Positions 1 through 38,700 of a DNA stretch of 64,000 bases are shown here, piece after piece. The stretch spans positions 48,360,001-48,424,000 of the forward strand of contig OX597836.1 of assembly GCA_951406725.2 (NCBI GenBank), given 5' to 3'. Made by a program: the position numbers and the translations under genes. Position 1 is the stretch's first letter. Every line of letters begins with the position of its first letter. This stretch comes from Octopus vulgaris (Eukaryota). The notes under the pieces were generated by a model, which searched no databases, was not told the DNA's origin, and saw only the letters and a list, made by a program, of their open reading frames with translations.

Positions 1-611
1 AGCTGTGTATGGTTTCATGGTTGCAGTTGGTCGTCACTGATGTCTTTAGATTCTCATAGAAATTCAGATGACATGGCAATAGAGAAAAAAGATGATTTAT
101 GGATTTATATTTGAAATGATTTAAAGGAGTGAAGCTTTGATGAAGTGCAGAATAAGATGGAATGAAACGACCAAGTTCACTCCATTGAGGAAGAACTAGC
201 TTTAACAGCTTTTTAATATAATAACATGTTAAATAATAACAGCAATTATACTATTAATAATAATAATGATAATAGTAATAACAACAAGAACAATGATAAT
301 ACTAATAATAATGGTGATTATAGTAATAAGAGTAATAATAATAGTATTTTTTGTATTATTAATCAGCAGAAGTTATAGATTCCAGATCTGAAAATTTCAT
401 TTATTGACACTTACTGAGCCTAGTAACAAAGATGAGGAGGATGATGATGATGAAACCCTGAATTAATGTTTGGACATGTAATAATATTATCAACAGTTCG
501 GGCAACAGAATCCTGTGTGCATTGTTTCAAATCTTTATCTCTGCCAATATTTTCACAGATTTCTTTTATTTTAATTTGCTTTGAGCTTGCCCTTGTTTTT
601 CCCCTTTTCAG

Positions 612-731
612 ATTGACTTGGGACATATAAAGGAGTGCTTTCAAGAAATCTATGGGCAACCATTGTCTGAATGGGTTGACAGTGACTGTGGTGGAGATTA
701 TAAACGATTGTTGTTGAGGATTATCAAGTAG
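612..731 (+). CDS. Annexin terminal coding exon, proximal copy A (C-terminal part of annexin repeat 4)
   Basis: Polypyrimidine tract and cag acceptor (AG 610-611). Phase-0 translation IDLGHIKECFQEIYGQPLSEWVDSDCGGDYKRLLLRIIK* (TAG 729-731) fits the annexin C-terminal consensus (E)IDL..IK..F...YG..L...I..DTSGDY..LL.L. AATAAA at 865-870. Upstream exons lie outside the window. Confidence 0.92.
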   Translation: MDLGHIKECFQEIYGQPLSEWVDSDCGGDYKRLLLRIIK

Positions 732-1148
732 CAAAAGAGAAATTAATTTTTCCTAACAGTAACCCTCTATCAGGTTTTTCATTCACAGCCAATGGCTTTG
801 ATAAAAAGAAAGAAATATTTGTGATATTATTAGCAAATATTAATGTATTTTCTTAAAGTACATTAATAAAATAAATTTCAAAATTGGATTAATTTTGTGT
901 CTATTATATTTTTAAGGAATTATCCTATTCCTCAGTTTTATAATGTCACCAAAATGATAAGTGTGACACTTAATGGTTTCTCTTACATTCAGTGCTTTGG
1001 TGAGATTCATGGATCATAGCTAATGGTGAAGTAATAGCTGATGTGGTTCTGACAAGATCAGCCATTGTCTTTAACACCGCATTTGAGTGTCATTCTTTGT
1101 TTTGCTTCCGAGTCCCAATACAATATCTTAATTATAAGTGCCATGTAA

Positions 1149-1363
1149 GGTGGTGAGCTGGCAGACGTTAGCACACTGGGCAAAATGCTTAGCGGTATTT
1201 CATCTGTTTTTATGTTCTGAGTTCAAATTCTGCCGAGGTCACCTTTGCCTTTCATCCTTTTGGGGTCAAAAAAATTAAGTACCAGTTGCGTTCTGGGGTC
1301 AATGTAATCGACTGGCCATCTCTCCCCAAATTTCGGACCTTGTGCCTAGAGTAGAAAAGAATA
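1149..1363 (+). mobile_element. tRNA-derived SINE, family B (MetaSINE-like core)
   Basis: GGTGAGCTGGCAGA...GAGTTCAAATTC B box; GCCTTTCATCCTTT.GGGGTC..AAATTAAGTACCAG core. Confidence 0.85.
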
Positions 1364-1966
1364 AGTTCCATGTTGTTTTTTTCTCTCTGTCATATATAGT
1401 GAAGCAAGGCTCACATAGTGTTTGTCACTGTTGACCCACTGGTGGCTCGTTTGGTATCTTCTGTTTTGTTAATTACATTTTCCGTTTGCTTAGTCTTTTA
1501 TTTTTTCTCATTACAAGATGAAACTCTGTATGAGATAAGGGGAAAAGTCAAAAGATTAAAAAAAAAAAAGACTTTATAAAATATAGGGCAAAACACATTG
1601 CAGCAGACCATAATTGCATAGGCACCGGCTGAGTGCCAGCTTCAAAAGGATTCAGAGAAAAGAAATGATAATATGATCCAACTGCAGGACTTTAAAAAAA
1701 AAAACAAAAAACAAAACCACCATAACCGTCCCAGTGGGTCGTATGAGACTTTTGAGTCTCCTGCAAATATTTCAGTCACGTCAGCTGGGTCCTTTCTTTG
1801 TGTTTTTTCCCTTCACCAAGCTTTAGCTGTTCAAGTTGAACATCTCCATGAATCTCATCAGTATGGAAGGGCCTTCAAGGGTGATAGTCACTGCTCCTAT
1901 CCCTCACATAAAAAAAGCAATTTAAAATCCAGAATTCGAAAAATATAAATACTAAATATATTTATG

Positions 1967-2360
1967 GAAGCAGGCATGGCTGTGTGGTGAGAAGCTTGCT
2001 TCCCAACCACATGGTTCTGGGTTCAGTCCCACTGCATGGCATCATGGGCAAGTGCCTTCTGCTATAGCCTTGGGCCGACCAAACCCTTGTAAGTGGATTT
2101 GGTAGATGGAAACTGAAAGAAGCCTGTTGTATTTATATATCTATGTGTGTGTTTCTCTGTGTCTGTATTAGTTCCCCATCACCACTTGAAACCAGTGTTG
2201 GTGTGTTTGCATCCCTGTAACCTAGTGGTTCAGCAAAAGGGAATGATAAAGTACCAGGCTTTAAAAAAGTAAGTACTGAGGTTGATATGTTCAACTAAAA
2301 TTCTTCAAGGCAGTGCCCCAGCATGGCCACAATCTCATGATTGAAACAAGTAAAAAGATA
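1967..2360 (+). mobile_element. tRNA-derived SINE, family A
   Basis: A box TGGCTGTGTGG, B box GGTTCAGTCCC, conserved body CCTTGTGAGTGGATTTGGTAGACGGAAACTGAAAGAAGCC, internal (TA)/(TG) tract, tail CCAGCATGGCCACAGTC. Confidence 0.88.
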
Positions 2361-2759
2361 ACAATTCTGGTTATTAAGACCTGCAAAGGTATTCTCGTTA
2401 TTGTGTGTTTGTGATGGAGCAAGATTTTATCTGAATGAGAGAAATCCACAGAAGATATTTTGGTAGGCACAATTTTTTAATTTTAAGCTTGCCTTGTTTC
2501 TCAAGATAAACTAATCTTCTTTTTTTCTTAATCCATTAACACTAAAATTAAAACTCCTCTCTGCATGCTTTACAAACGATGAGTGTTGTTGAAGTGAAAA
2601 CGCTTTCCTAGTTCTAATGCTTAAATACATTAAAATGCCAACATTATGAACTCCTGTTCAACCTCTTCACAAGAAAAGGGATTTCCTGGGCCAAGTGTAT
2701 TTTGATTGGTTTCTTTATCCTGATATGTTGGCTGACATCATTTTAATCAGTTGATTTCA

Positions 2760-2837
2760 GGTGGTGGTGATGATATTACTCAGGTAAGTCCATGATTCAA
2801 CCAACTGGGTCTGCTGTTTTAATCACTGAACATCATT
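2760..2837 (+). ncRNA. Candidate intronic box C/D snoRNA
   Basis: C box GTGATGA 2767-2773 and D box CTGA 2826-2829, with an internal C'-like ATGATT and short flanking complementarity (ggtggtg/catcatt). The D-proximal segment CTGCTGTTTTAATCA resembles the antisense of the conserved 28S stretch GGUUGAUnnAGACAGCAGGACGG. Sense to the annexin intron. Confidence 0.4.
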
Positions 2838-2940
2838 ACTGTTGTCATTTCAATGTATTTAAACAATACATTTAGTATTTGTCACAATATTTTATTGAGG
2901 TATGTTGCTAATTGTCTCAGGGAATTGTAAAAAAAAAACC

Positions 2941-2943
<3 letters not shown>

Positions 2944-2995
<52 letters not shown>
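2944..2995. repeat. (TA)n microsatellite
   Basis: Direct reading. Confidence 0.95.
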
Positions 2996-2997
<2 letters not shown>

Positions 2998-3120
2998 CTT
3001 TCTGTGGAAGAGTGTGTAGTCTCGAAATGTACTTTTTCAATTCCCGAGTGCTATACTAATACATCTGCTTGTATTCTACACCACCTGTCTTCGTCTTTCG
3101 TTTTTTTCATGAATTCTCCC

Positions 3121-3154
<34 letters not shown>

Positions 3155-4922
3155 ATGTTGAAATTTATAGAAAAACAAGTCAAAGACAGGTGTAAGAACA
3201 AACAAGGAGGTGGTTTATGGAAAGGTGTGTGTGTGTTTTTGTTTGTTTTTTTCTTTCTTTCCTATTTCTCTATTTCTGAGTTGTTTTTGTTTGTTTTTTT
3301 TTTCTTTCCTATTTCTCTTGTTTATTCTGTGTGAAATTCCTCTTTTTGACTCCCTGATTCTCTTAGTTTCCTCATACACAATAACAATACTGTTTTTGTT
3401 TGCCTCTCTTAGCTGCATGCAGTCAAACTCTTTCGTAGAAGCTTACAGTTTGTATTTTTTGCATGAATATCATATTGGTACTAATATTTAAATTTTACCT
3501 GAGTTTCTGTAGTAAATATTTCTAAATCATTTTCTCTGTTCCTTTTGAATCTTCTGATCTGTTCTAAAACCATTTTATTTAAGCATCGTTGGAACATGTC
3601 TACTTAAGATTTTACAATAGAAGGAATATTTTCTATTTGGACAAAATTCAGAATCTATATTTAAAATATTGTGTAAAAGACATCAACAAAGTATGTTTTT
3701 ATTGCTAAAGTTTTCATGGAAGAGTTATTGGAAAGCAATCAACCATTTTAAATATTAATAGAATTAAAATATACACTTATAAACAAAATATGTTACATGG
3801 TTGATGTTGGGGATGCCATCCAGCTGCAGAAACCATGCCAAAGTCGATGTTGGAGCACAAGACGGATCCAACAAATCTAACTCCTGTCAGATGTTAAATG
3901 ATGATAGTTTGTAGTAAACGAACTGAACTTTTTCTAATGCCATTTCCTGTTTTGGTAGTAACACCTCACTTGTTCTTGCAGCACATCAAACCATCCGTTT
4001 CTATTTTCCCCACAAAATAGTTTTTGTTGATAAAACATTAAAACAGGCTGGAAATCACCCAAAAGATTTGTAACTGCAACATCCAATAAACCTTCAGCTG
4101 TACCATTTCTACCAGCAACATTTCTGGATCCAACAGGAAACATACCATCTGACAACATTCAGTGTATATTTATTATTTATACTGAATCTAATAAATCGGG
4201 GGGTGTTTAGGGGAGACTTAGTTATAGCAAGCAAAAGGGAACACCTACATGGAAATCTCTCTTGTTAACTAGTTGCGTAGTTTATGAAGATGATAATGAT
4301 TTAGAAGCTAATTAAGAAGAAATAATGCAACTCTGACAGTTGGCCATAAAGTTTGAATATAGTAGTATACCTAAATATTCCAGATACTGTAGCAGAAGTT
4401 GGTCTTAAGCATTGTCTAACATTTCATATTAGACACTAACTTCAGAATTGCCATTTTCTATTACAAAGTCAATTGCAAAAAAATTATTGGAACTGTCTTA
4501 AAATTCCTCCTGATAACCAACTCCTCTAACCATAAATATCTAATATTGTTGGCTGGGCAATATTTGACATCTTCTCAGGACATTATTTGTATCAGGTTTT
4601 AAATTCTTTTTTGGCATTAGTAAGTTAACAATATCATTAATATTTCTAATGAAGTATTTCAGAAAAAACAAACTTGTAGGCTTTTATAAAACTTTGGTTC
4701 CAAAGTTACTTTTACATCTTTTATTAATTAAACTATTCTATTAAATCTAGAATTATTTTGGAAAAAGTTCTGTCTTCAAAGAGAAATACCACAAGATGTA
4801 GCATTTCATCCTTTTTCTTTCTCTGAGATCCTTTTTTCTAATGTTTTGATTGTCTCTCATCTGACCCGATTCTTCCAAACATTGTACTTTTTTTTTTTTA
4901 TATTTATCCTTTCTTCCTTTAG

Positions 4923-5045
4923 GTTGATCTGCAAGACATAAAAGATGAATTTCAAGCATTGTATGAAAAGCCACTTGCTGAGATGGTTAGCAATGACTGC
5001 GGCGGTGATTACAAATCCATTTTGTTGAAAGTAATTGGTGATTGA
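4923..5045 (+). CDS. Annexin terminal coding exon, distal copy B
   Basis: Acceptor tttcttcctttag (AG 4921-4922). Phase-0 translation VDLQDIKDEFQALYEKPLAEMVSNDCGGDYKSILLKVIGD* (TGA 5043-5045), 21/39 aa identical to copy A. AATAAA at 5089-5094 and 5218-5223. Confidence 0.92.
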   Translation, partial: VDLQDIKDEFQALYEKPLAEMVSNDCGGDYKSILLKVIGD

Positions 5046-5780
5046 CTTTTACATTCCATTCCAGTTTACCATTTTTGAAAAATAGTAAAATAAAACTTTT
5101 CGATTCTTTTACATTCTTGCTGTTAAATTTCAAAGAAACTGTTGTTTGGAAGTAATTTTATCGTTTTTGAGGTTTTAAATTTAATTGGATTTTATCCCAA
5201 TTGATTTTTTTATCAAGAATAAAGTAATTTGAACTGAAATCCTTTCTGGAATATTTATTTCTGAGATCCTAAATTCAATCATCATTTAATGCCTGTTTTT
5301 CCATAGCCAATGCCCTTCTTGTTTCTAAGCAAAGTAATATTTCCCCATGGAAGACTGGAAACAATCAACATCGCTTGTATGAGGGGTAGGCTTGTTTACA
5401 GCTGTCTCATGTTAAGAGAACAAACACAAATTTCTACACAATTTTCATCAACCAAACCCACAAAAGCTTAGGTCAGCTGAAGGCTGTTTGCCTAAGGTGC
5501 CAAACAGTGGTATTGAATCCTGATCCATGTGGTTGAGATCCACAGCTCTGCCTCACATTTTTTTTATTTTGATCTTATTTTCTGGGTGTTTTTCTTTCTC
5601 TTCACTTTGACTCCCTAATCAGGAGTTAAAAAAATTAAAATTATTTAACCCTTTCATGATTATTTTCCAATAGAAATAAGCAGCTCATCTTAATTAAAAA
5701 AAAACAAACAAAAAAAAATGGTTTTGGAAGGATTTTGTAAAATGACTTTCATTACTAAAACCCCATTTTGACCCCAGTGG

Positions 5781-5971
5781 TTACTCTTTTGTTTCAGTCA
5801 ATTGACTGTGGCCATGCTGGAGCACTGCCTTTAGCCAAGAAAATCAACCCCAGGACTTATTCTTTGGAAGCCTAGTGCTTATTCTAATCGTTCTTTTGCC
5901 AAACTGCTAAGTTGCGGTGACGTAAACACACCAGCATTGGTTGTCAAGCGATGTTGGAGGGACAAAGATAA

Positions 5972-6005
<34 letters not shown>

Positions 6006-6150
6006 GACAGGCTTCTTTCAGTTTCCATCTACCAAATCCACTCACAAGGCCTGAAGCTATAGTAGAAGACACCTGCCCAAGGTGCCACGCAGTGGGACTG
6101 AACCCGGAACCATGTAAGCAAGCTACTTACCACACAGCCACTCCTGCGGC
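5781..6150 (-). mobile_element. tRNA-derived SINE, family A
   Basis: Reverse complement of the family A consensus. Confidence 0.88.
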
Positions 6151-6676
6151 TATGTTCTTAACCTTTTTAACGTCCAGACCAGATCCCAAATCTGATAAAT
6201 GTTATAACTTTCTACAATAGTGATAATCTATTAAATGTCAATTAGATTGCTTAAGAGTGTTTGCTGTTTTGCAGGGAAACGCTTCAGAAATAAATACAAA
6301 ACACAAACTGGAATTGGAATTTTGGTTTACTTACATGTAAACCATGATGATGATGTGTTACCAAATATCATCAGTTTGTGCTGCACACAAGGTTCTAAGA
6401 GCAAATACCTTGTAAAATTTTGTGCTTTAATAACTAATAACACATAGGTGTTCCAGCCATGACCATGCAGTTGTTAAATCCTTTTCATATGAATGCAATT
6501 TTTCAACCTTTTCTTTTTTTATACCAACCTGTCTGAAACTGCTCTTGGCTCTAGGATACAATTTTCATGTTTTAAAATCTTCTAAAATAAAACCTCATTG
6601 AAACTTCAAGCAAATGAATATGGTAACACTTGGGAACAATTGCTAATTTGTATTCTCAGACTTGTTGGGTCAAGAA

Positions 6677-13710: not shown

Positions 13711-13850
13711 TTAAATTATTACTTTTCCGGTGCCAAAAACCATATAAACAATCCAACCGAAAATACATACAACAGCAGTTTGGCTGAAAACCGCTCCCCA
13801 ACTTTTTGTCGCTTCCAGAATATTGCCAGCAATGTAAACCCCTACAAAAC
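13711..13850 (-). CDS. SLC17A9: SLC17A9 last coding exon
   Basis: (G)[45 protein letters not shown]; tttttgcag acceptor; TAA at 13711-13713. Confidence 0.95.
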
Positions 13851-16800
13851 CTGCAAAAATATGAGAAAAAAATAATCCTAAATCTTTGTTTACAAAGCAA
13901 TAAATGTGAGAAGAAATATAAAATTGTTTTGAGCAGAGAAAACAAGTGAAACAAGCAATGGCAACTCTAATAGGAAGAATGGTAAGATTCCCTCCTTAGC
14001 CAGACATGTTCCCACTGAATATTAGAAATGCAGGATGCCACTTGTATGAGGGTGGCACTCGTTTACAACAATTATGTGATGTCAAGACAAGGACACACAC
14101 ACACACACTGTTATAGAGACACAAACATAGCATAGGAGAAAAAAAAGGACGTAAAAATAGTTGACCAAATAAATACTGTCATTTACATTGATTTCTTTTA
14201 TGAAGTGACATTTACATAAACTTTATTGGACTTATTTGATAAAGAATAAGAAACGGACAAAGACAGAAGAAATCCTACCTGGGATTGCACCTGCCATGTT
14301 CATGATGCCTGAAACCAAAATAGAAAAGAACAATTACATATAATGTTCATAATAATAATAATAATGAAATTATAGCGTATAGTGCTCAGGTGCACTACAG
14401 CTTATCAAAGATGTATGTACAGTACATAGAATTATTTACAAATTATTTACAAATGTGCTGGTGGCACATAAAAAGCACCATCCGATCGTGGCCGTTTGCC
14501 AGACTCGTCTGGCACCTGTGCCGGTGGCATGTAAAAAGCACCCACTACACTCATGGAGTGGTTGGCGTTAGGAAGGGCATCCAGCCGTAGAAACATTGTC
14601 AGATCAGACTGGGCCTGGTGCAGCCTTCTGGCTTCCCAGACCCCAGTTGAACCGTCCAACCCATGCTAGCATGGAAAGCGGATGCTAAACGATGATGATG
14701 ATGATGACAGGAAAAATGAACAGTGTACGAGTCCTGATATACATGTGTGCATGTGCATGGAGTGGGGGATATCAGGTATAGTGTTGGCGAATTTCAGGAA
14801 GCATGGAGGTTTTAAAGGATGCAATGTCTTGGCAGCTAACAACTGATGCAGGTAGTTTGTTCCATGCTTCAGCAACTCTGAGCGTGAAAAAATGTTTCTG
14901 AAAATGATGGGAGCTGTGCTGTTTTCTGACTTTGTAGGCATGCCCACATGTGTTAGACACATGGAGCTCAAAAAGGTGCTCAGGGTGGTTGTTGGCAACA
15001 TGGTTAATAATTTTGTGGGTGTTAACCAAGTCAGTTGCCAGACGTCAGAGCTTCAATGTATCCCTGCCCAGGGAAGCAAGGCTTGGTTGCACATCTCTGA
15101 ACAGTTTCCAGGAGGTCAATGTCCTGAGCAAGATAGGGCTTCCAGACTGGTGATGCAAATTCCAAGTCGGCTACACCATGGCCATATACAGCCTTAAATA
15201 GATAGCTGAAGAGTGGCTGACAAAGATCTTGCTGTCAAATGAGGTTATAGGAAATTTCACCATAAACATTTTTGCAGTAAAAAATAAATAAATTACAAAC
15301 AGAAAAGAATGAGAAAAACAAAAGTTTAGCTGTTTTCTTGAAATGACAACTTTCTCAATTAACGTACAAATTAGAGAAAGGTAATTTCTTTCAAATGAGT
15401 TTTCTTGTTTACAGTTAGTTTGTGTGTCGTCTTTGTGGCGAAATTTCCTCAAGCAAATTTGCCAATGTTTACAGTGACTGCTCTGGATATGATCTAATGA
15501 ATACAGAGTGTATTACAGGTTTGTAATATACACACACCCCTAATGTATGAAGTGTACTGAAATGGGTGTAAGGAGTAAGTGTGTGTGTGTGTGTGTGTAG
15601 TGGCATGAGTCAAGTGGAGGACTCCACTAAATACATGAATATACTTCCAATTAACAAACTGATTAATTAACTCATATGTTATACCATAGTTTCTGTTTGT
15701 AGATGCAAAATATAAAAGAAACAATTTTTTAATCTTTGTATTTCACAGATTTCAAGCAATATACATTCGTTTCTAATGAGTAAATTAACCAAATTCAATT
15801 ACATAATTAGTGAAATAAAAGAAAGATTATGGGGAATGGAGGCTGGAAGAGTGTATGTATAGATAAGAGTGTGGTTATGGCTGAGCCTCTGTATGTGTGT
15901 GTGTGTGTGTGTGTGTCTAATTGCATGTGTTTTAATGAATAAGCATATTTTTAAGGGAAGGGAGATAAAGGGAATGAAGACAACCTACCGAAAACAGATC
16001 CTGCGTGTTTGGGAGCAATGTCCTGGGGGTTTATTAATATCCCGCTGCCATGGAAACCACAGCAGGCAACTGCACATGCGAGGCAGAAGAGGGATGCTTC
16101 AAAGCTTGATGTATATCCGATCAGCATAAGAAATATAGCACTTCCACACAAGGCTACTGTCTGCAAAACAATAAAGATTACTAATCAATCAAAATTTGAT
16201 AGACTATTGACAATTACTGATTATTTCAGTGTGTCTACTAGCCTACTGTTGATAAGTTGTGTTGAGGTAAACTGTGATGGACTCCCTCGGTTGAAGATGG
16301 TGTACGAGCGTTCGGCTTTTGCCAAACACCCCTACACAAATAATTAGCTTATGGTAATCAAATGCTCATATGCCACTCATTAACTCACTCCTTCCAGCAA
16401 ATCGACATTACCTGTACAGGTGTCAAAGTGGTCATAGAACAATGCAAAATGAAGCATTTTGCTCAAGAAACACAACACATCACCCAGGAATTGAAACCAC
16501 AATCTCACAATTGTGAGTGCAACATCCTAACCACCAGGCCATGTGCTGTACATTAAATATTAATTCACTACTTACATACCTGCAATCCACTGAGTGGATC
16601 CCTCCTGAGCAAAGCTCTACCCGCCCCAATCCTAATGTAATTACTTTTGCAGATAAAGGTGAACGGATGGATCCTACGAGCGGTGGAAAACTTCACCTAC
16701 CTGGGCAGCACTCTCTCCTGCAATGCCAACATAGATGCTGAAATCATCAACAGAATCTCCAAGGCAAGCAGCGCGTTTGGGAGACTGCGAAAGAAAGTCT

Positions 16801-18839
16801 GAGAGCGGAGAGGAATCAGCCTCAACACCAAGCTGAAAGTCTACCGGGCAGTCGTGCTTACCACCCTACTATACGGCTGCGAGACGTGGACTGCTTACCG
16901 AAAGCACGAGCGCCAGATAAACCACTTCCACCTCAGGTGTCTTCGGAACCTCCTTCACATCCTCTGGCAGGACAAAGTCCCAGACACGGAAGTTCTGAAG
17001 CAGGCAGATCTCCCTAGCACCATCACGATCATGCGCAAGGCCCAGCTGAGATGGGCAGGCCACGTCTCCCGCATGTCCGACACTCACATCCCAAAACAGC
17101 TCTTCTACAGTGAACTCAGCCAGGGCAAATGCAAAGTCGGAGGGCAGAACAAGCGTTTCAAGGACAGCCTCAAAGTCTCTCTCAAGGACTTCTCCATCGG
17201 CACAGAGACTTGGGAGACACTTGCTGCCGACCGCTCATCCTGGCGCAGCGCAATCACCACAGGAGCAAAGACAGCCGAGGAGAGACGGATTCAGTCAGCA
17301 GAACAGAAACGCCAGATGCGGAAAGCCAGAGCCACCTGCACCAATAGCACAGCCCCTACCCACTTCTGCCCCACCTGTGGGAGGGGCTTTCTTGCCCGGA
17401 TAGGCCTCACTAGCCACCTCCAGTCTCATAGCAGCAATTCCACCAAATGATGTCAATGGTCATCTTCGAACCAGAAGGACGAACATTATTATTATACTTT
17501 TGCAGACGACCAAACACCCTTCTCCATGTTGCAAGGGAAGAAGCATGCAACTCGGACATCGTCCTTTCCACCCTGTCTCCCTTGCAGCAGCACCGAACCC
17601 ATTGTCACTTCTGTTTGGATTATTACAGGATTGGTCATGATTTAACAATGTTTTATGGAAGAATAACTTCAAGGTATTTATTACTGCCAATTCAAGGAAA
17701 TGGCTGTTTTCTGTGGAAATATTCGACCAGGTAGTGTTGTATGTCACAATTTCAAATAAACACTATGAACTGAAGGTAGACAAATGAGAAAAAGGGAAAC
17801 ATTTCTAGTTTCATTGCAGTTTAGCTGTTTGGAATATAAGTATTGCTTCAACTTACCTCCATAAATTTTCTGACAAATGTCACAGTGTAACCTGATGTGC
17901 GACAGAATAGAAAGAATATAAGATCAATAATCACAAAAGACATCTAATAATACATTTATAAATATTTTAACAGTTCATTTAGCCAAGTACTTTAATACAT
18001 AAGATATGTATATCAGTATAGTAAAGTTTAAACTCTCTATGTTGGGGAACTATAGCAGTCAAGGGTGGTTACAGATGACAGTGTGGATGGAACACAGTAG
18101 AGATAGAATCAAGGTTAACTGTACCTCTGTTGCTAGAACACAACAGAGGTCCTGAGGTACTGTCTGCAATTGTAAGCAGCTTCAACACTGTGGGGTTATT
18201 TGTTTTGTTAAAAGGAATGTCTAACTGTGTGTCCACCCAGGGAAGTGAGATTTAACTTTCATCAATCTTTAATCATTTAGTAATACAATGAAATATTAAG
18301 CCCAATTTTTCCAGTTTTTAAGTTTTAATGCATGGTTATTTTCATTCCTTCCTTGGGGAGTAGGGGGGGGCGATGGTAAATGAAGAACATGCAAGATTTA
18401 TTTTTAATGCAAATTGGTTTCATACTAAATGATAATGAAAAGTTGATGAGGAGTCAAACGAGAATTCTTTAAGTTTTTTCTTTTTGACAAAAGCAAAACT
18501 TACCTTTGCATATCATGACATCTGCTAACCAACCACTGAATATGGAGCTTGGAATGGTCACTACCCATGGGACCACATTAAATACCCACCCCTAGAACAA
18601 AAACAAACAAAAAAAATACATGAATTTAAAAAAGTTTCAATGCAAACATTAAGTAAGAGACTCAATAACATCATAGAAGAGGAGGAGGAGGCTGAAGGTT
18701 GGTTGTCCGTTGCAGGTGAGCATGGCATGGTGGCTTGTGTCATGATTTTGCTGGGTGTCGTTGTGGCCTGTGTAGTTGTGAGAGCAGACAAAGTCTCTCT
18801 CTTGGCTGACCCACTCTTGACCCTGCAGGAAGTGACAAC

Positions 18840-28300: not shown

Positions 28301-31300
28301 GAATATTGCTAATGAAGAGCCACATTGTCATAGCAAGACTCAGACTATATTTCAGTGATTTCATTTTATGGCATGTCTGCTTTGAGATTGTAGCATAAAT
28401 ATCTCTAGAGAAGACATAGAACACCTCCAGGTAGGCAGGTATGGCAGCTAAGATTTCTAATGGTAGCGGGGTGGGGTGGGGGTGGGGAGTCAGCAGTGAC
28501 CTTAGTGAAATTGCTACAATTTAGAACTTGAATCAGACAAGAGACCAAGTGATTCAGCAGTTCAATGGGAAGTGTAGAGCTCTCAACTGTAGTTGCTATT
28601 TAAGAACATGAGTCATATTCAGCAAACTAATAAAAAAATAATAATAAAGAAAGGTCAATTTTACAGTAGCTTGAGTCTGTTGAAGGAGCTTGTAAGAATG
28701 ACTGCTTAATTCCAGTAGTTCATGGAATCAAGTAGAAAAGATTATTTCCAGTAACAATCCCAAATTTGCTGGCAGCAGCTAAGTGAACTGAGGTGAATAA
28801 AATTAAATGGACAACCAAAATAGACGGAGAGATTGCTCTGAGCTGAAGAGTTGTCAATCGGTCAGCTGAGTGATATCTTGCCTCTTCTTTGATTCAATAC
28901 TTTGACAGGATTATTAGCTCAAAATACATGAATTATTGATGGATAAAGAGAAAAAATTCAAACAACAGTTATAATAAGATAGGAAATATTCTTACCTTGA
29001 AAGATTCCCAATAAAACCCGTGATAAGACTAAAATATTAAGTGTGACTTGTTTATCTTTACTGATATATACAAGTTGTGGGGTCCAAAATGTTATTATTG
29101 ACCAAAATGCTGCAGCCATGGGCACAACAATCTCACCGCCAACTCTGTCACTGAGATAACCTCCAATGAACTGGGTCATGGTATAACCCCAGAAAAAGGA
29201 GGATAAAACTGTTCCCTGAAAAGAATTACAAAAGAAACCATGAAAATAAAACATAATATTGTATGTTATTGAGGATTATAACAATGTCATCGATTTTGCT
29301 ACAAAATCTATTTTCAGTGAAGAAGAGAGGGTGATGGTGGTGGTGGTGGTGGTGGCCAAACTGACCAGGATGATACAACTGGTGTTTTAGCTCGAATGCT
29401 TGCAAATTGATGATGAAGGCAGGGACCATGTAAACTTAGAGGAAGTTGGAAAGAATTATGGTTGTGGAAAGGAGTTTAGTTTGGAAAAGAGGAAGAAAGG
29501 GATGAGCATCAAGTGATACATTATTAGAGAGGTCAAGAGACAGAGGTCAAGAGGTCAAGAGAGAGTATGCAGAATGTAGGTCAAGCAACTGTTCTTTTGT
29601 TCTTTCAAAGTCTGATATTTATTCTATTGGTCATTTAACCAAGAAGCTAAGTTACAGGGGACATAAACAAACCAACATCAGTTTTCCAGAGATGTAAAAC
29701 AATTACAAAGATACACACCCACACACAAATACATCCTGATGTCACGGTGTCAGCCAGACCATTGGATCTCACTATACACCACTCGTCACAATGTACTTCA
29801 CATTATTTTAGCTTTTGGTGATGCCACTCCGCTTGATGGGCAGGCCAACATTCCCACTGAACAGAAGGCCACCGATCCATGGTAGGGTGTCCCATTGACA
29901 GCCGAGTGGACTGGAGCAGTGTGAAATGAAGTGCTTTGCCCAAGAATACAATGCACTGCCAGGTCTGGGGATTGAAACAATGATCTCGTGGTCATCAGTT
30001 CAACACCCTAACCACTAACCCCCATACCTTTGCACACACACACACACACACACGGTACAGACAGGGTTGTGTGGTCAAGAAGTTTGCTCTTTTGCAAACC
30101 ACATAGTTTTGAGTTCCGTCCCACTGCACAACACTTTGCTCAAGTGTCTCCTACTGTAACTTCCAATGGGACCAATACCTTGTAAATGAATTTAGTATAT
30201 CTAAATAGTTCAGTTCATTAGGGACCCAGATTCCAAAACCATTGCAAAGCCATAAAGTGGGTCCTTTATGAACTGAAGCTTTTAATAAACATCGTACTGG
30301 ACCAAAGTGCATCAAAGGAAATCTTTCATGTAAGATTATATCTAATATATTAAGTCATAAAAGGTATCATATTTAAACTAGGGGGACATAAAAGGGAAAA
30401 CTGATAAGGTGATATCTGTAGGATTAAATATTCATAAATATCGACACCAGCGATTCTCAACTGGGGTTCCTTATGATCCTTGCAGGTCCACAGAAGATTT
30501 TGTTGTTAAAATTTATCTCCAATAAATTGCTTATAATTCTGAAAAACACTAAATATTTTAACAAATTTTTAATACAATTTCTAATAATATTTAATTATCA
30601 AAATATGACAGGAATTTTTTAATCATCAAATGGCTATGGAAGCCCAGTAGGGTGAAATAGGAACCAAAGGGTTCCACCGGAAAAAACGGTTGAGTACCAC
30701 TGCTCTGTAGCCTGTCCCTTCAGATTTTAAATGTTCTGTATTATGTACAAGTCACACTATCTTATATTGGATTTTAACTGAAAAAACTGGGGTGCAACTT
30801 ATACACGAGGTAAAGCTAAAACTATGAAAGTAAAAAGATTTTGTACCAAGATTTAACACTAAATTAGGAGCGAGGTGCAGTTATACACGTATGAATATGG
30901 TACTATGCATACAATAGACATTTTCTCTGAACAGACTTGAGTCCATCATAGAATTAAGTAATCCATTATGATTGGGACCAGACACACTATTGGAATACTA
31001 TAAAATAATTTCTACAGTGTTAACACAAAACTACCTTTCATTCTTACTCTCTCCTCTTCTCCCCTTTTGTCACCATTCAACTATGGTTGTAGTTGAATAA
31101 TATTCTTAAGGCCACAATTTACTCACAAGCAGCATCTTCAGAGCTAGCTTTGTCACTAATTCAATTCTTAACCAAATTGAAAACTTAACGTTTTTGAAGA
31201 GGATTGGTCCTTAGCTACATTTTGGCATTAAAAAATTGAGATTTGTTCCAACAACACCAAAGTTTGTATCAAAATTTGTAGCGATGTTATAGGAGAGTAA

Positions 31301-34300
31301 ATAACACCACCAATCAAGTTTAGATCTAAATAACTTTTTTTTAATTTTAAAAGCAAAATATATTTATCTTGGCTTCAATGCTAGAAGAAAGCATGAAGAA
31401 TTTCATAGTTTTGGTCTCATGCAACAAAAATTTGTATAAAAAAAGTTGAGGTAAAATATGAAAAAAATATAAAGGCAAAACATTAGATTTAAGTATAATT
31501 AACTTTTTTATTTTAAAAACAAACTATATTTTAATTAAGCTTAAATGATAGAGCTCAATTCGAGGAGTTTCATGGTATCAGTCTCATGCAATGAAGTTTT
31601 AAAAGAAAAAAGTTATGAGTGTTTGTTTCTCAAATTTGAGGGTGATAATATAGTTCTATACTTTTTTATGAATATAGGTCTATAAGGGGACCTTTAATAT
31701 ATGTCACTGGCATCATTGAGGTGAGGAAAAAATTGTCGACACCACTAATGTGCAATTAGTTTAATTACACCATCTGTATTAATTATTGCAATTATAACAT
31801 GTAAACACAGTCCTGTAATATCTGAGACAAGAAAGAAGTTTTAAAAGAAAAAAAGTTAGGAGTGTTTGTGTCTCAAACTTGAAGGTGATAATATAGTTCT
31901 ATACCTTTTTATGAATATAGGTCTATAAGGGGACTTTTAATAGCCATGAGGAAGAAAATGGGGGACTTGTTTCGGGTTCTGCATCTGCTGACATCAATAT
32001 ATGTCACTGGTATCATTGAGGTAATTTTCAATAAGGTAAAATCTTAAATTATTAATTAGCATAATAGCATAACCTGGAAAAAAACATGGATTTTACTGTG
32101 AATTTGTTGTTATAGGTAGATTATATTGTAATATATAACTAATTTTTGTATCATTCTATTTATTGTACTAATTATGTACTACTATTATTTTTTATAACCT
32201 ATTTTCAAATTTCTAATAATTAATTAATAATTTAAAAAATGTTTTTAAAGTGCAAAAAATATTTTGAGTAATTTTAATTTTTAATAGAAGTAACAAGTAA
32301 TAACAAATAGAAGTAATAACTTGTAAAAATTTTTTAGTTTTAATAAAAGCTAATATTTTCTAAATCTAAATATTTTATTAAAAATTTTATCCTTAGCTGC
32401 AAAAGTAAAAATGTTCTTGTCCTGTACTTTTCCAGGTTTATAATCTTAAGAATATTATTTCTCTTACATGTGTAAGTGGACCCCATGCATACCGGGTCCT
32501 TTCCACCCAGACTTCCTGACTAAGGGAAATAACTCTGGAAGCCTTCATCCAACTGATTTTTAGGAAAATTTCAGTCAATAACTAACATCGAAATTAAACG
32601 ATACTGAAAAATTTATACTTACTGATTCGGTTTTATTCCATTTGAACTCTTTGGCCAATGATACGACACACAGTGGCATTACAGTACGGCAGGCGTATAA
32701 CATGGCACCCCCACAAAACAGCCCACAGCCCCATTGGCGTTTCTCTTGTCTGTCAAAACAAAACAAAACAAAACAAAAAATAAATTTAAGGAGAGTGAGA
32801 GAATGTATGTATACACACACACTCACCCACCATATATTATATACATATTTCTTTATATATACCACTATTATTATTTAACATCCACTTAAATATGCTTGTA
32901 AGAGTCAAACGCAGATTTTCTACAACCAAATGCCTTTCCTGTCTCTAACCTTCACCTGGCCCCAAGTAAGGTAATATTTCCCCACGGCCAGACATGCTTG
33001 TGCAGAATATTGGAAATGAGTGACACTGCTTACACAACAGGGACATTCATGTCAAGACAGGGGGGTCACAAACATACATATATATGAACACACACATGAT
33101 GGACTTCTTTCAGTTTCTGTCTACCAAATTCAGTAACAAAGCTTTGGTCTGTTTGAGTCTTGTAACGATAAAAATTTGTTGTTGTAATTGCATGTTGTAG
33201 GATGTGAAAGATGGACAATGCATGAAGTTTTAAGGAAATATATATTTACCGTTACGTTACAAATACCTTGCCTCGACGGGTAGGTTATGATAAATCCAAA
33301 AGCATGCAAAGTAAAGTTTGTGTTTGTGTCCTCTTCATTGTTTAGTAGTTATTGCAGAGAGAGATAGAATGATGTTGTAAGAGAACAGAATTAGAGCTAG
33401 TGAGAGTTGTAGGGTGTGGGACGTTGTCTCTCAGTTGCTGATAATAAACTTCATTTCTCCTTCTGACCAAGGTTCTAGCTGGTCAGGCAGACTTCGTTGT
33501 CACCAAAGTGACTAACTGGTTGAGTCGTCACCATGTGACTGGGCTCGTTGAGTCATCACCAATTGATTTTTGCTTCGGGTGTTTAGAAGGTTAGATATAT
33601 CATTGAGAACAATAGATTTAGTTGGTTATCTTGTTATCTCTATTCTAGCTTTTGGTGAAGTAGAAGAGGTTAGAAAGGCGAAGAGGTGAAGACATTATTT
33701 CTTGTAATGATGTGGCTTGGGGTTCACTCCCAATGCATGGCACCATGGCCAAGTATCTTCTCCTATAATTCTGGGCCAACCAAAGCCTTGTAAGTGGATT
33801 TGCTAGATGGAAACTGAAAGAAGCCTGTGATGTGCGTGTGTGTGTGTGTGTATGTATATATGTATGTGTATGTGCATGTGTGTGTTGCTGAGTGCTAGTT
33901 GTAAATGGGTGTCAATGTTATATGAGTGATGTCCTTCGTTTGCAATCTTCTGTGAGGCCATTCCTGGTTATTCTGTTGTTTGTGTTCAAGAGACAAAATG
34001 AAATATTACCTTATTTGAAAACAGATGAATGTTGGCAACAGAAAGAGCATCCAGTCACAGAAACTCTGCCTCAGTGTGACCCATGCAAGCATGAGAAAAT
34101 GGATGTTAAAACAATGATAATGATGAAAGCTACAAGAGTGTCCCCACTTCACACATCAAAAGGTGGAGGAGCTGCTCACACCTAAACATTACAGATTGAC
34201 TTTAAAGAAAGGAAACCCATACCCACCCACAAGAATGTGGCGCATCCTTCCTACCTTGTTTCCTCCTCCTTCTGCAGCAGTTGCTGCTCCCCTCAACTAG

Positions 34301-35787: not shown

Positions 35788-38700
35788 TTTAAACACATCA
35801 AATGTGTCACTTGAGTGGTTTCTTGTCTAAACAAACAGATAAACAGACAGATCAGTTCAGATCAGAGACAGCAACAAGCAGATGACTCACAAGCTGGCAC
35901 AGAGGGGATGGTTTGATGGTTAAAGAATGGGTTTTGAAAAACAAGTCTACAGGTAATATTATGTTACAGAAAACATTTATCTAAAACTAAAATAAAGGTA
36001 AATGACTTTCCAGTAAGAGGATTAGAAAAGAAATTAAGCATTTCCAAAAGCTGGACTTTAAAATTTCATCATTGATATCAATAGAAGGGCAGGGAGCTGG
36101 CAGAATCGTTAGCATGCCGGGCGAAATGCTTAGCAGTATTTCTGCTGCTACGTTCCGAGTTCAAATTCCACTGAGGTTGACTTTGCCTTTCATCCTTTTG
36201 GGGTCAATTAAATAAGTACCAGTTATGCACTGGGCTCGATGTGATCGATTTAATCCCTTTGTCTGTCCTTGTTTGTCCCCTCTATGTTTAGCCCCCTGTG
36301 GACAATAAAGAAATAGACATCAATACTCATATTTTGCAAGAAATACAAATAGAGGCCCCTAATTGTGGATCTCTGATTAACTTAACTGAAACAGTTACAA
36401 ATCAAAACAATTATTCAAATGTGAACATCATCATCACAATCATCATCGTTTGGTTTGACTGAAACTGGTAAGCCGGAGAGCTGCACCAGGTTCCAGTCTG
36501 ATTTGGGATGGTTTCTATGGCTGGATGCCCTTCCTAACGCCAACCACTTTACAGAGTGTAACGGGTGCTTTTTAGGTGCCACCAACACGGGTGCCATTTG
36601 CATGACACCAGCCACGACTATGGTTTCACTCACCTTGACAAGTTTTCTCTTGCATCGCATCTCGCCAAAGAACTTGTTCACTGTTGCTGGAAATTAAATG
36701 CAACAGTATAGGGGAGTATAATGGTTTCAAATGTTGGCACAATAATTTGTGTGTGGGGGGTGTAAGTCGATAACATCAACCCCAGTATGCAACTGGTACT
36801 TATTTTATTGATCCTGAAAGGATGAAAGGCAAAGTCAACCTCATAATGTAAAGATGGATGAAATACTTTTGTCTGGCATGCTAATGGTGTACAGGGCAGT
36901 CATTATTCCAACCCTCCTTTACGCATCCGAAACCTGGACCCCGTATAGTCACCACCTGAAAACGCTCGAGAAATTTCACCAACGCTGTCTTCGGAAGATC
37001 CTTAACATCAGCTGGGAAGACAGAAGAACTAATGTCAGCGTGCTACAAGAAGCAAAAATGACCAGCATTGAAGCCTATGTCATCAAAGGCCAACTAAGAT
37101 GGAGTGGCCACGTGGTTAGAATGACTGATGAACGACTTCCCAAACAGATCTTCTACTCCCAACTCAAAGACGGCAAGCGTACAAAAGGAGGCCAGAAGAA
37201 ACGCTACAAGGACTCCCTGAAATCGAACCTCAAAAAGTGTGACATTGACTTCACCAACTGGGAGGAAACGGCAAAAAACAGACCACTCTGGAAAACCACC
37301 ATCCATGAGGGAACGGTGACTTTCGAGTCAAAAAGGTCTGCAGAGCTGGAGGAGAAAAGACGACGATGGAAGGAGCGCCAACAACAACCACGTGCGACTC
37401 TCCCTTCCAGCACTAGATGTCCGCATTGCGACCGATCTTTTCAAGCAAGAATTGGTCTTATCGGTCACCTGCGGACTCACCAGTAAATTTGCGCGAAGAC
37501 CATCATCTTGAGGGATTGCCATCATCAATGGTTCTGCCAGCTTTCTGCTCCCTGGTGGCAACATATTGAGGTATATCAGTCGACGTATAATGAAAGAAGT
37601 TTGTTGATGTTTTTTTAGAGGAAGTGTGGGAGAGAAAGAGAAAGACTGGGAAATGAACAGGTAAATTAAAAACATTACCTGGCAACAAAGAAAAACAACT
37701 AAAGAGGTGACTTCACACTGTATGTGAAGAGCTGTATTCCTCAAATTAATCAACCTGTTGCCATGGCAATCAAGACATTGTGCTAGTTATGTGGTTATCA
37801 TCTCAGGTTAGCTTTGAAGGTTGATAAAGGTCCAAAACATATCGAATCTTTAGAGCAATGGATAAAAAGTCTTCCTGGGTTTACTTCTGTCTCAATCTGA
37901 TGTGATTTGGAATTTCTCTAGAGTCACCTTACTCTTATCAGTCAACCACATGGTCCTCTACTTGACCTTGTAGATATAACAGCCAAATCTCCTCAAATCA
38001 CACTACTAGCTTTAACAATAAAGGCACAATAGATAATATAGACATACAAAAAGATGGGATGGTCATAGCTAGAAAGCCTCTGATCACAGTTCTACACATA
38101 GGTCTACTTAAAGCTCATCTTAGGGTCAACATGATGTTACAGAATATAGAGGAAAGGAAACTGAATGAAGAATGTACAGCATATCATCCTCCTCTTCATC
38201 ACCATCATTGCTTTAATGATGCTGATGCATGGGTCAGACTGGACTCAGTGAGGCAGGTTTTCTACAGCTGGATGCTCTTCCTGTTGCCAACCCTGACCCA
38301 TTTGCAAGCAGTCCAGACAGCTTTTTCATGGAAGACTGCACCAAAAAATTATTTCTATGATGGTGTTGTCTATTTACAACTGTCATCTGATGTCAAGACA
38401 CAAACACACACAAATCCACAAAACATTTCAATATAAATTGAAAATACTTGCACAAGGGGCCACACAGTGGGACTGAATCAAAACCTTTGTAACCCACAGG
38501 GCTGCAAAACAAACTCCTTTCGCTACACAGTTTCTTTTATTTGTTTCAGTCATTTGACTGCGGCCATGCTGGAGCACTGCCTTTAGTTGAGCAAATTGAC
38601 CCCAAGACTTATTCTTTGTAAGCCTAGTACTTATTCTATTGGTCTGGTCTCTCTTGCCGAACCGTAAGTGACAAGGACATAAACACACCAGCATCGGTTG

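Follow-up and report, generated by a model that had tools for sequence, protein, structure and literature searches.

A 64,000-nucleotide stretch of the Octopus vulgaris genome (assembly GCA_951406725.2, contig OX597836.1, positions 48,360,001 to 48,424,000; hereafter the window, in whose numbering positions are given unless another sequence is named) holds two short exons that both encode the end of the fourth repeat of an annexin. The question raised by this locus is whether one gene chooses between two last coding exons, as an original prediction made from the letters of the window had proposed, or whether the two exons have some other relation to each other. Exons A and B, as they are called here, belong to a single annexin gene, whose last coding exon is present in duplicate, with both versions intact. 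It is very probable that alternative splicing yields from this gene two full annexins, which would differ only in helices C to E of repeat 4 and in the 3′ untranslated region (UTR).

Two last exons and one set of upstream exons

The proximal exon A (612..731, + strand) consists of 39 codons and a TAG stop at 729-731, and the distal exon B (4923..5045, + strand), separated from it by 4191 nt, consists of 40 codons and a TGA stop at 5043-5045; each encodes helices 4C, 4D, and 4E of annexin repeat 4. Both match positions 31-65 of the Pfam family Annexin (PF00191) above the curated cut-off (E = 1.7e-7 for A and 1.7e-8 for B). They agree at 21 of 39 residues, with DCGGDYK in both, and at 72 of 117 nucleotides (62%), and a comparison of their flanks found no similarity. 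The acceptor and pyrimidine tract of exon A (582..611, + strand) has its AG at 610-611, 20 pyrimidines in 22 positions, and a branch-like TTAAT 41 nt before the exon. That of exon B (4885..4922, + strand) has its AG at 4921-4922 and 19 pyrimidines in 22 positions, and the preceding 60 nt contain no further AG. Downstream of exon A, an AATAAA at 865..870 (+ strand), with a U-rich stretch on its 3′ side and one TGTA on its 5′ side, is a candidate poly(A) signal by motif, and exon B is followed by a first and a second candidate of the same kind at 5089..5094 and 5218..5223 (both + strand). The coordinates, the 21/39 identity, and the shared DCGGDYK of the original prediction were borne out, as was its claim that each exon has its own acceptor, stop codon, and AATAAA, the acceptors proving to have strong pyrimidine tracts.

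Seven shared exons, all with AG/GT borders, lie directly upstream of the window (G000:C23 48350607-48358470). They end in a phase 0 donor at G000:C23 48358470, which is 2141 nt 5′ of exon A and 6452 nt 5′ of exon B, and either exon joins this donor in frame with a stop-free translation. Over the C-terminal 311 or 312 residues that were compared, the shared exons with A correspond to the public O. vulgaris protein P0124 (CAI9739761.1) and those with B to P0123 (CAI9739760.1). All four annexin repeats are present in both forms, PF00191 matching four stretches (E = 4e-88 and 5.5e-88). When a profile of 195 annexin last segments was searched against the 214 kb around the locus, A and B were the sole full copies; the same region contains only one set of upstream annexin exons, and Pfam searches detected no second annexin gene within it. 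Neither the Pfam nor the last-exon profile search found an annexin exon between A and B, in agreement with the prediction, and the check for further copies upstream that had been proposed alongside it returned, across 150 kb, only exons of this one gene. A longer O. vulgaris model (P0121) has two further 5′ exons, located 16-27 kb upstream (G000:C23 48323752-48334376), and given these exons the gene may be variable at its start too.

Splicing and the choice of ending

Of 24 sequencing runs listed, four, from four studies and two coded organisms, were aligned to a stretch with the shared exons and exon A. The runs have no RNA label on record; their RNA origin is shown by the spliced GT..AG joints in their assembled contigs, which reveal neither expression levels nor transcript ends. 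A joint from the shared donor to exon A, with GT..AG ends, was found in all four, which bears out the junction proposed earlier for position 612. We infer that the same donor would also be spliced to exon B, across an intron of 6452 nt, because both endings are annotated in three Octopus species, exon B is intact, and its near-invariant residues are kept. Of the alternative last-exon choice first proposed, the single gene, the homologous exons, purifying selection, the splice to A in 4/4 runs, and the presence of both endings in public models all stand, whereas the splice to B and tissue-dependent switching go beyond what these runs demonstrate.

Contig depth, which cannot rank the parts of the gene, varied from run to run: in run X1 it was 562 at the A joint and 4730-6625 at the shared joints, and in run X9 it was 2391 and 2052, respectively, with intron contigs at 11-56. 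Depth in X9 drops from 2161 at window positions 610-796 to 31.5 at 935-1196, and in the other three runs a single contig covering 610-1196 passes through the AATAAA at 865. The depths would be compatible with a use of B that varies between samples and with transcript cleavage past the AATAAA at 865, but they were not counted as evidence. A long read-through UTR extending from A to B had no support in the contigs of the four runs, subject to the same limit on depth. Differences of the A>G type in the contigs were not accepted as RNA editing, being indistinguishable from alleles.

The two forms could be produced by ordinary alternative last-exon choice, in which the acceptor of exon A, together with its poly(A) signal, would compete with a distal acceptor 4.2 kb further on. 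If the acceptor and poly(A) signal of A were used, the transcript would be cleaved before B; if A were skipped, it would be removed with the intron, and B would terminate the mRNA. Either choice would remove the other exon, and therefore no special RNA switch would be needed for exclusivity. An alternative mechanism is that competing RNA pairings, in which selectors pair with a docking site, set the choice. In Drosophila such pairings choose the cassette in the 3′ variable regions of PGRP-LC, CG42235, and pipe, and they are a known mechanism at tandem 3′ variable regions (PMC6191721; PMC9013439). The octopus gene resembles these systems in its tandem duplicated terminal cassettes, one of which would be used at a time; it differs in having only two single-exon copies and no pairing above shuffled controls. 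The best duplexes between the intron and the A or B flank (-28 to -32 kcal/mol) fell inside the range of 12 shuffled controls in all three comparisons, a test that is weak without related genomes, and the inverted repeats (25 of 114 pairs listed) were mostly TA microsatellites, together with one pair resembling a dispersed repeat and short AT-rich arms. A pairing-based switch seems unlikely at this locus, and ordinary last-exon choice remains our preferred mechanism.

Homologous 3′-terminal exons that serve as multiple poly(A) sites, for example in human capping protein beta, form the type B arrangement of Pillmann et al. (2011), who keep it apart from true mutually exclusive internal exons (PMC3228551). 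The octopus exons share with type B their homology, their like length, frame, and sequence, their place in a structural part of the protein, a stop codon in each exon, and one shared donor, and they are not tandem gene copies. They differ from the type B cases described there in belonging to another protein family and in that their poly(A) sites are known as AATAAA motifs. RefSeq and GenBank already list the two proteins as isoforms predicted by automatic annotation: the public "annexin A13 isoform X1" and "annexin-B12 isoform X2" of O. sinensis, O. vulgaris, and O. bimaculoides are this gene with its two endings, the names being best-hit labels. A literature search, outside which most subscription journals lay, turned up no publication about this gene or about the splicing of annexins in molluscs. 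The octopus pair is a real, already annotated, and apparently unstudied member of a known arrangement.

Distribution and origin of the second ending

Both endings are present in public models of three Octopus species, namely O. vulgaris (CAI9739760.1 / CAI9739761.1), O. sinensis (XP_029649936.1 / XP_029649937.1), and O. bimaculoides (XP_014779985.1 / XP_014779986.1), and the isoform pairs of the latter two first diverge at the exon boundary. In Argonauta, the one protein available ends as A does. Eight of nine decapodiform-type proteins have one common ending; the exception, a Sepia pharaonis protein (P0128, CAE1175500.1), has an aberrant second ending that resembles an annexin over its first 14 residues but not beyond them, perhaps because a second copy is broken or was mis-assembled. 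The pair of endings, initially attributed to a cephalopod annexin, is thus documented for the genus Octopus only. No second ending was found in any of six clusters of gastropods and bivalves, which comprised 24 sequences after two Mytilus fragments of 58 residues had been excluded. A search for further carriers of the second ending gave eight matches, none of them new, and no cephalopod B form was seen among the 7 examined of 150 listed representatives.

In a tree of the exon sequences (25 rows and 39 columns, with Pinctada excluded and one row misaligned), the B exons of different species form one group (92/89) and the A-type exons another (67/95), both branches being unstarred. We infer a tandem exon duplication within cephalopods that took place before the split between O. 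vulgaris and O. bimaculoides and was independent of insect annexin B9 (AnxB9). Elsewhere in the O. vulgaris genome, the annexin paralogues on C9 and C21 have one last exon each, within 27 and 22 kb downstream, and the last exon of the C28 paralogue was not found by the last-exon profile.

The original prediction had left it open whether the likeness to insects is convergent or reflects a shared ancestral arrangement. Xia et al. in 2001 (PMID 11719064, cited in PMC3426547) reportedly described three isoforms of silkworm annexin IX that arise through alternative C-terminal exons. Insect AnxB9 and the octopus gene are alike in having homologous alternative endings of repeat 4, of equal or near-equal length, with the cap residue inside the swapped part and acidic throughout. 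However, the bee and ant AnxB9 isoforms (RefSeq X1-X3) do not differ before residue 308 of 323, and in two beetle isoforms the first difference comes at 298 of 313. The unit in bees and ants comprises about 16 residues in three variants with an altered DE-loop motif, whereas the unit in Octopus comprises 39-40 residues in two variants with the motif unchanged. Insect annexins also seem to have an intron directly before the DE-loop motif, as suggested by a one-residue acceptor variant in moth B10, and the octopus gene lacks it. A double-length octopus paralogue on C3 (G000:C3 72037018-72039410 and 72052446-72053634) has an intron that divides its last segment ahead of the DE-loop motif; this intron sits near the start of the insect tails, in contrast to the A/B gene and the C9 and C21 paralogues, which are without it.

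A core tree (31 rows, the bat, lamprey, and Taenia rows having been dropped in trimming) placed the octopus gene in a mollusc clade (97/95) and the insect B9 and B10 proteins in a separate clade (98/93), and an earlier 37-row tree (6 dropped) agrees. Descent of both systems from one arrangement in a protostome ancestor would account for the fact that each alters the end of repeat 4 and includes the cap residue, and topology tests (see below) do not reject a grouping of the octopus gene with insect B9. Such common descent is nevertheless quite improbable, given an insect unit of the last 16 residues in three variants against 39-40 residues in two, an intron position that the octopus gene lacks, the presence of two endings in 0/6 other mollusc clusters, and the separation of the two genes in the best tree. 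An independent origin is favoured because the boundary and copy number differ and other molluscs are single-ended. Of the two origins first offered, convergence is the more probable, and shared ancestry is unlikely.

Constraint on the two endings

Between exons A and B, the proportion of nonsynonymous differences (pN) was 0.30 and that of synonymous differences (pS) 0.74. The median pN/pS was 0.40 (95% interval, 0.22-0.71), and pN equalled or exceeded pS in 10 of 10,000 codon bootstraps. The purifying selection proposed for the pair was thus confirmed by a pN/pS of about 0.4 and by the bootstraps. Synonymous sites have almost reached saturation, which makes the duplication an old one and rules out dating it from A and B. 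Two of the reasons originally given for selection were less secure. The statement that most differences are conservative was overstated, 9 of the 18 being BLOSUM62-positive and 10 of the 18 scoring zero or above. That both frames are open is true, but it is weak evidence of selection by itself, as the frame stayed open in 13-19% of the copies when 20,000 were mutated at random under each setting (substitutions only). The residues that are near-invariant in the family, judged against 94 other annexins, are kept in both A and B.

Several points weigh against two working endings of independent origin. The poly(A) sites of A and B are candidates predicted from AATAAA motifs, and protein searches turned up none derived from RNA that ends in B. 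When O. vulgaris is compared with O. bimaculoides, B is identical at 22/39 residues, A at 31/39, and the shared body at 220/275 (Fisher p = 0.002 for B vs body); this lower conservation of B could reflect relaxed constraint just as well as specialisation. The single endings of other molluscs were judged from annotated proteins, not DNA, only proteins having been compared for species other than O. vulgaris. No branch of the exon tree is starred, and approximately unbiased (AU) tests reject neither a species-wise grouping of A with B (p-AU 0.227) nor orthology with insect B9 (p-AU 0.141 and 0.188).

Some of these points could be taken to mean that A is the sole working ending and B a drifting spare, seldom if ever joined to the transcript: the A junction is the only one observed, and B diverges faster than both A and the shared body between two Octopus species, the O. 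bimaculoides copy seeming the faster (branch 0.49 vs 0.14 in the exon tree). Against this, B has an open frame and an intact acceptor, does not differ between the models of O. vulgaris and O. sinensis, is also open in O. bimaculoides, keeps the family-invariant residues, and terminates an annotated isoform in all three Octopus species. Alternative models at NCBI require transcript support. We consider a drifting spare copy highly improbable and retain the reading of one gene with two alternatively spliced endings. It is scarcely credible that A and B come from separate tandem genes or that B is an assembly artefact: tandem annexin genes exist in other animals (e.g., double-length models), but the window holds no other annexin exon between or after A and B and the 150 kb upstream none beyond this gene, 62% DNA identity with unrelated flanks is unlike a haplotype artefact, both endings are present in three Octopus species, and the two-gene reading, which the original prediction had also doubted, is rejected by the single upstream exon set in the 214-kb profile search and by the in-frame fit of both exons to the shared donor.

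Predicted effect of the swap

Annexin cores are usually regarded as fixed. The two octopus proteins are identical for 274 residues and differ at 18 of 39 positions in three helices. A structural model of the B form (predicted local distance difference test [pLDDT] score, 95) closely matched hydra annexin XII (1dm5; template modeling score [TM] of 0.98 and root mean square deviation [rmsd] of 0.9) and placed the exon-encoded helices 4C, 4D, and 4E at residues 277-288, 292-299, and 302-312, respectively. The A form, predicted without an alignment, gave a poor model (pLDDT, 41), and its helix positions were taken from the B-form model. Six of the 18 differences fall in helix 4C, two in the link between C and D, four in 4D, four in 4E, and two at the ends. 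Exon A holds residues that are rare in the family, a Cys (1% of 94 others) and a Trp (5%), and has a net charge of -2, compared with -5 in exon B.

A type II Ca2+ site has as its motif a GxGT loop and an acidic residue 39 positions past the Thr. The acidic residue is present in all four repeats of the octopus protein, repeat 2 being without the first Gly of the loop. Ca2+-dependent phospholipid binding is among the traits that define the annexin family. As originally noted, the acidic cap residue of the repeat-4 site, 39 positions after the GxGT Thr, lies inside the swapped exon, but it is Asp in both O. vulgaris forms and so provides no on/off switch. The seven residues around the DE loop are also identical in A and B, and with these and the cap residue unchanged, the swap is unlikely to toggle calcium binding. 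In annexins, helix C and the C-terminus lie on the side facing away from the membrane. On the model, the swap would likely retune partner-binding or packing surfaces (through helix 4C, the C-terminal end, and net charge), together with control through the 3′ UTR. The octopus pair is a clean natural experiment, and a comparison of the two forms would reveal the role of the repeat-4 surface apart from calcium binding.

Possible exon swaps in other annexins

Several animal lineages seem to vary annexin repeat 4 by exon duplication at different boundaries. Two amphioxus pairs, P0272/P0220 (Branchiostoma belcheri X1/X2) and P0276/P0277 (B. lanceolatum), differ only at residues 237-272. This block is the size of a penultimate exon and has the same two variants in both species, which makes it a candidate for a duplicated, mutually exclusive internal exon of repeat 4. 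Moth annexin B10 (P0118, P0300, and P0295-P0304) has two variants of a repeat-4 block that runs from helix A through helix D, and some moth B10 gene models string both copies of the block together. The amphioxus and moth swaps are known from public annotation only.

We offer tentatively, and with more doubt than conviction, a wider reading in which repeat 4 would be a recurrent and independent target of exon swapping (the last 40 residues in octopus; the last 16 in bees, ants, and beetles; the calcium loop to helix D in moth B10; and residues 237-272 in amphioxus) and in which, in addition, the octopus choice would be regulated and tissue dependent, the two forms would have distinct partners or locations, and the second ending would be under accelerated, possibly adaptive change. 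Outside repeat 4, two thrips annexins (P0198 and P0226, 385 aa) have models with two tandem copies of a block from repeats 1 and 2, possibly another duplicated exon pair strung together.

Other features of the window

Facing the annexin gene, on the - strand, are exons of a gene for a major-facilitator transporter (13711-13995, 28958-29275, and 32575-32874), of which 28958-29275 matches MFS_1 (E = 1.6e-9); this gene may be SLC17A9-like. Two open frames on the + strand (16803-17450 and 36818-37486) gave only a weak zinc-finger match and presumably resemble the 3′ ends of LINE retrotransposons.

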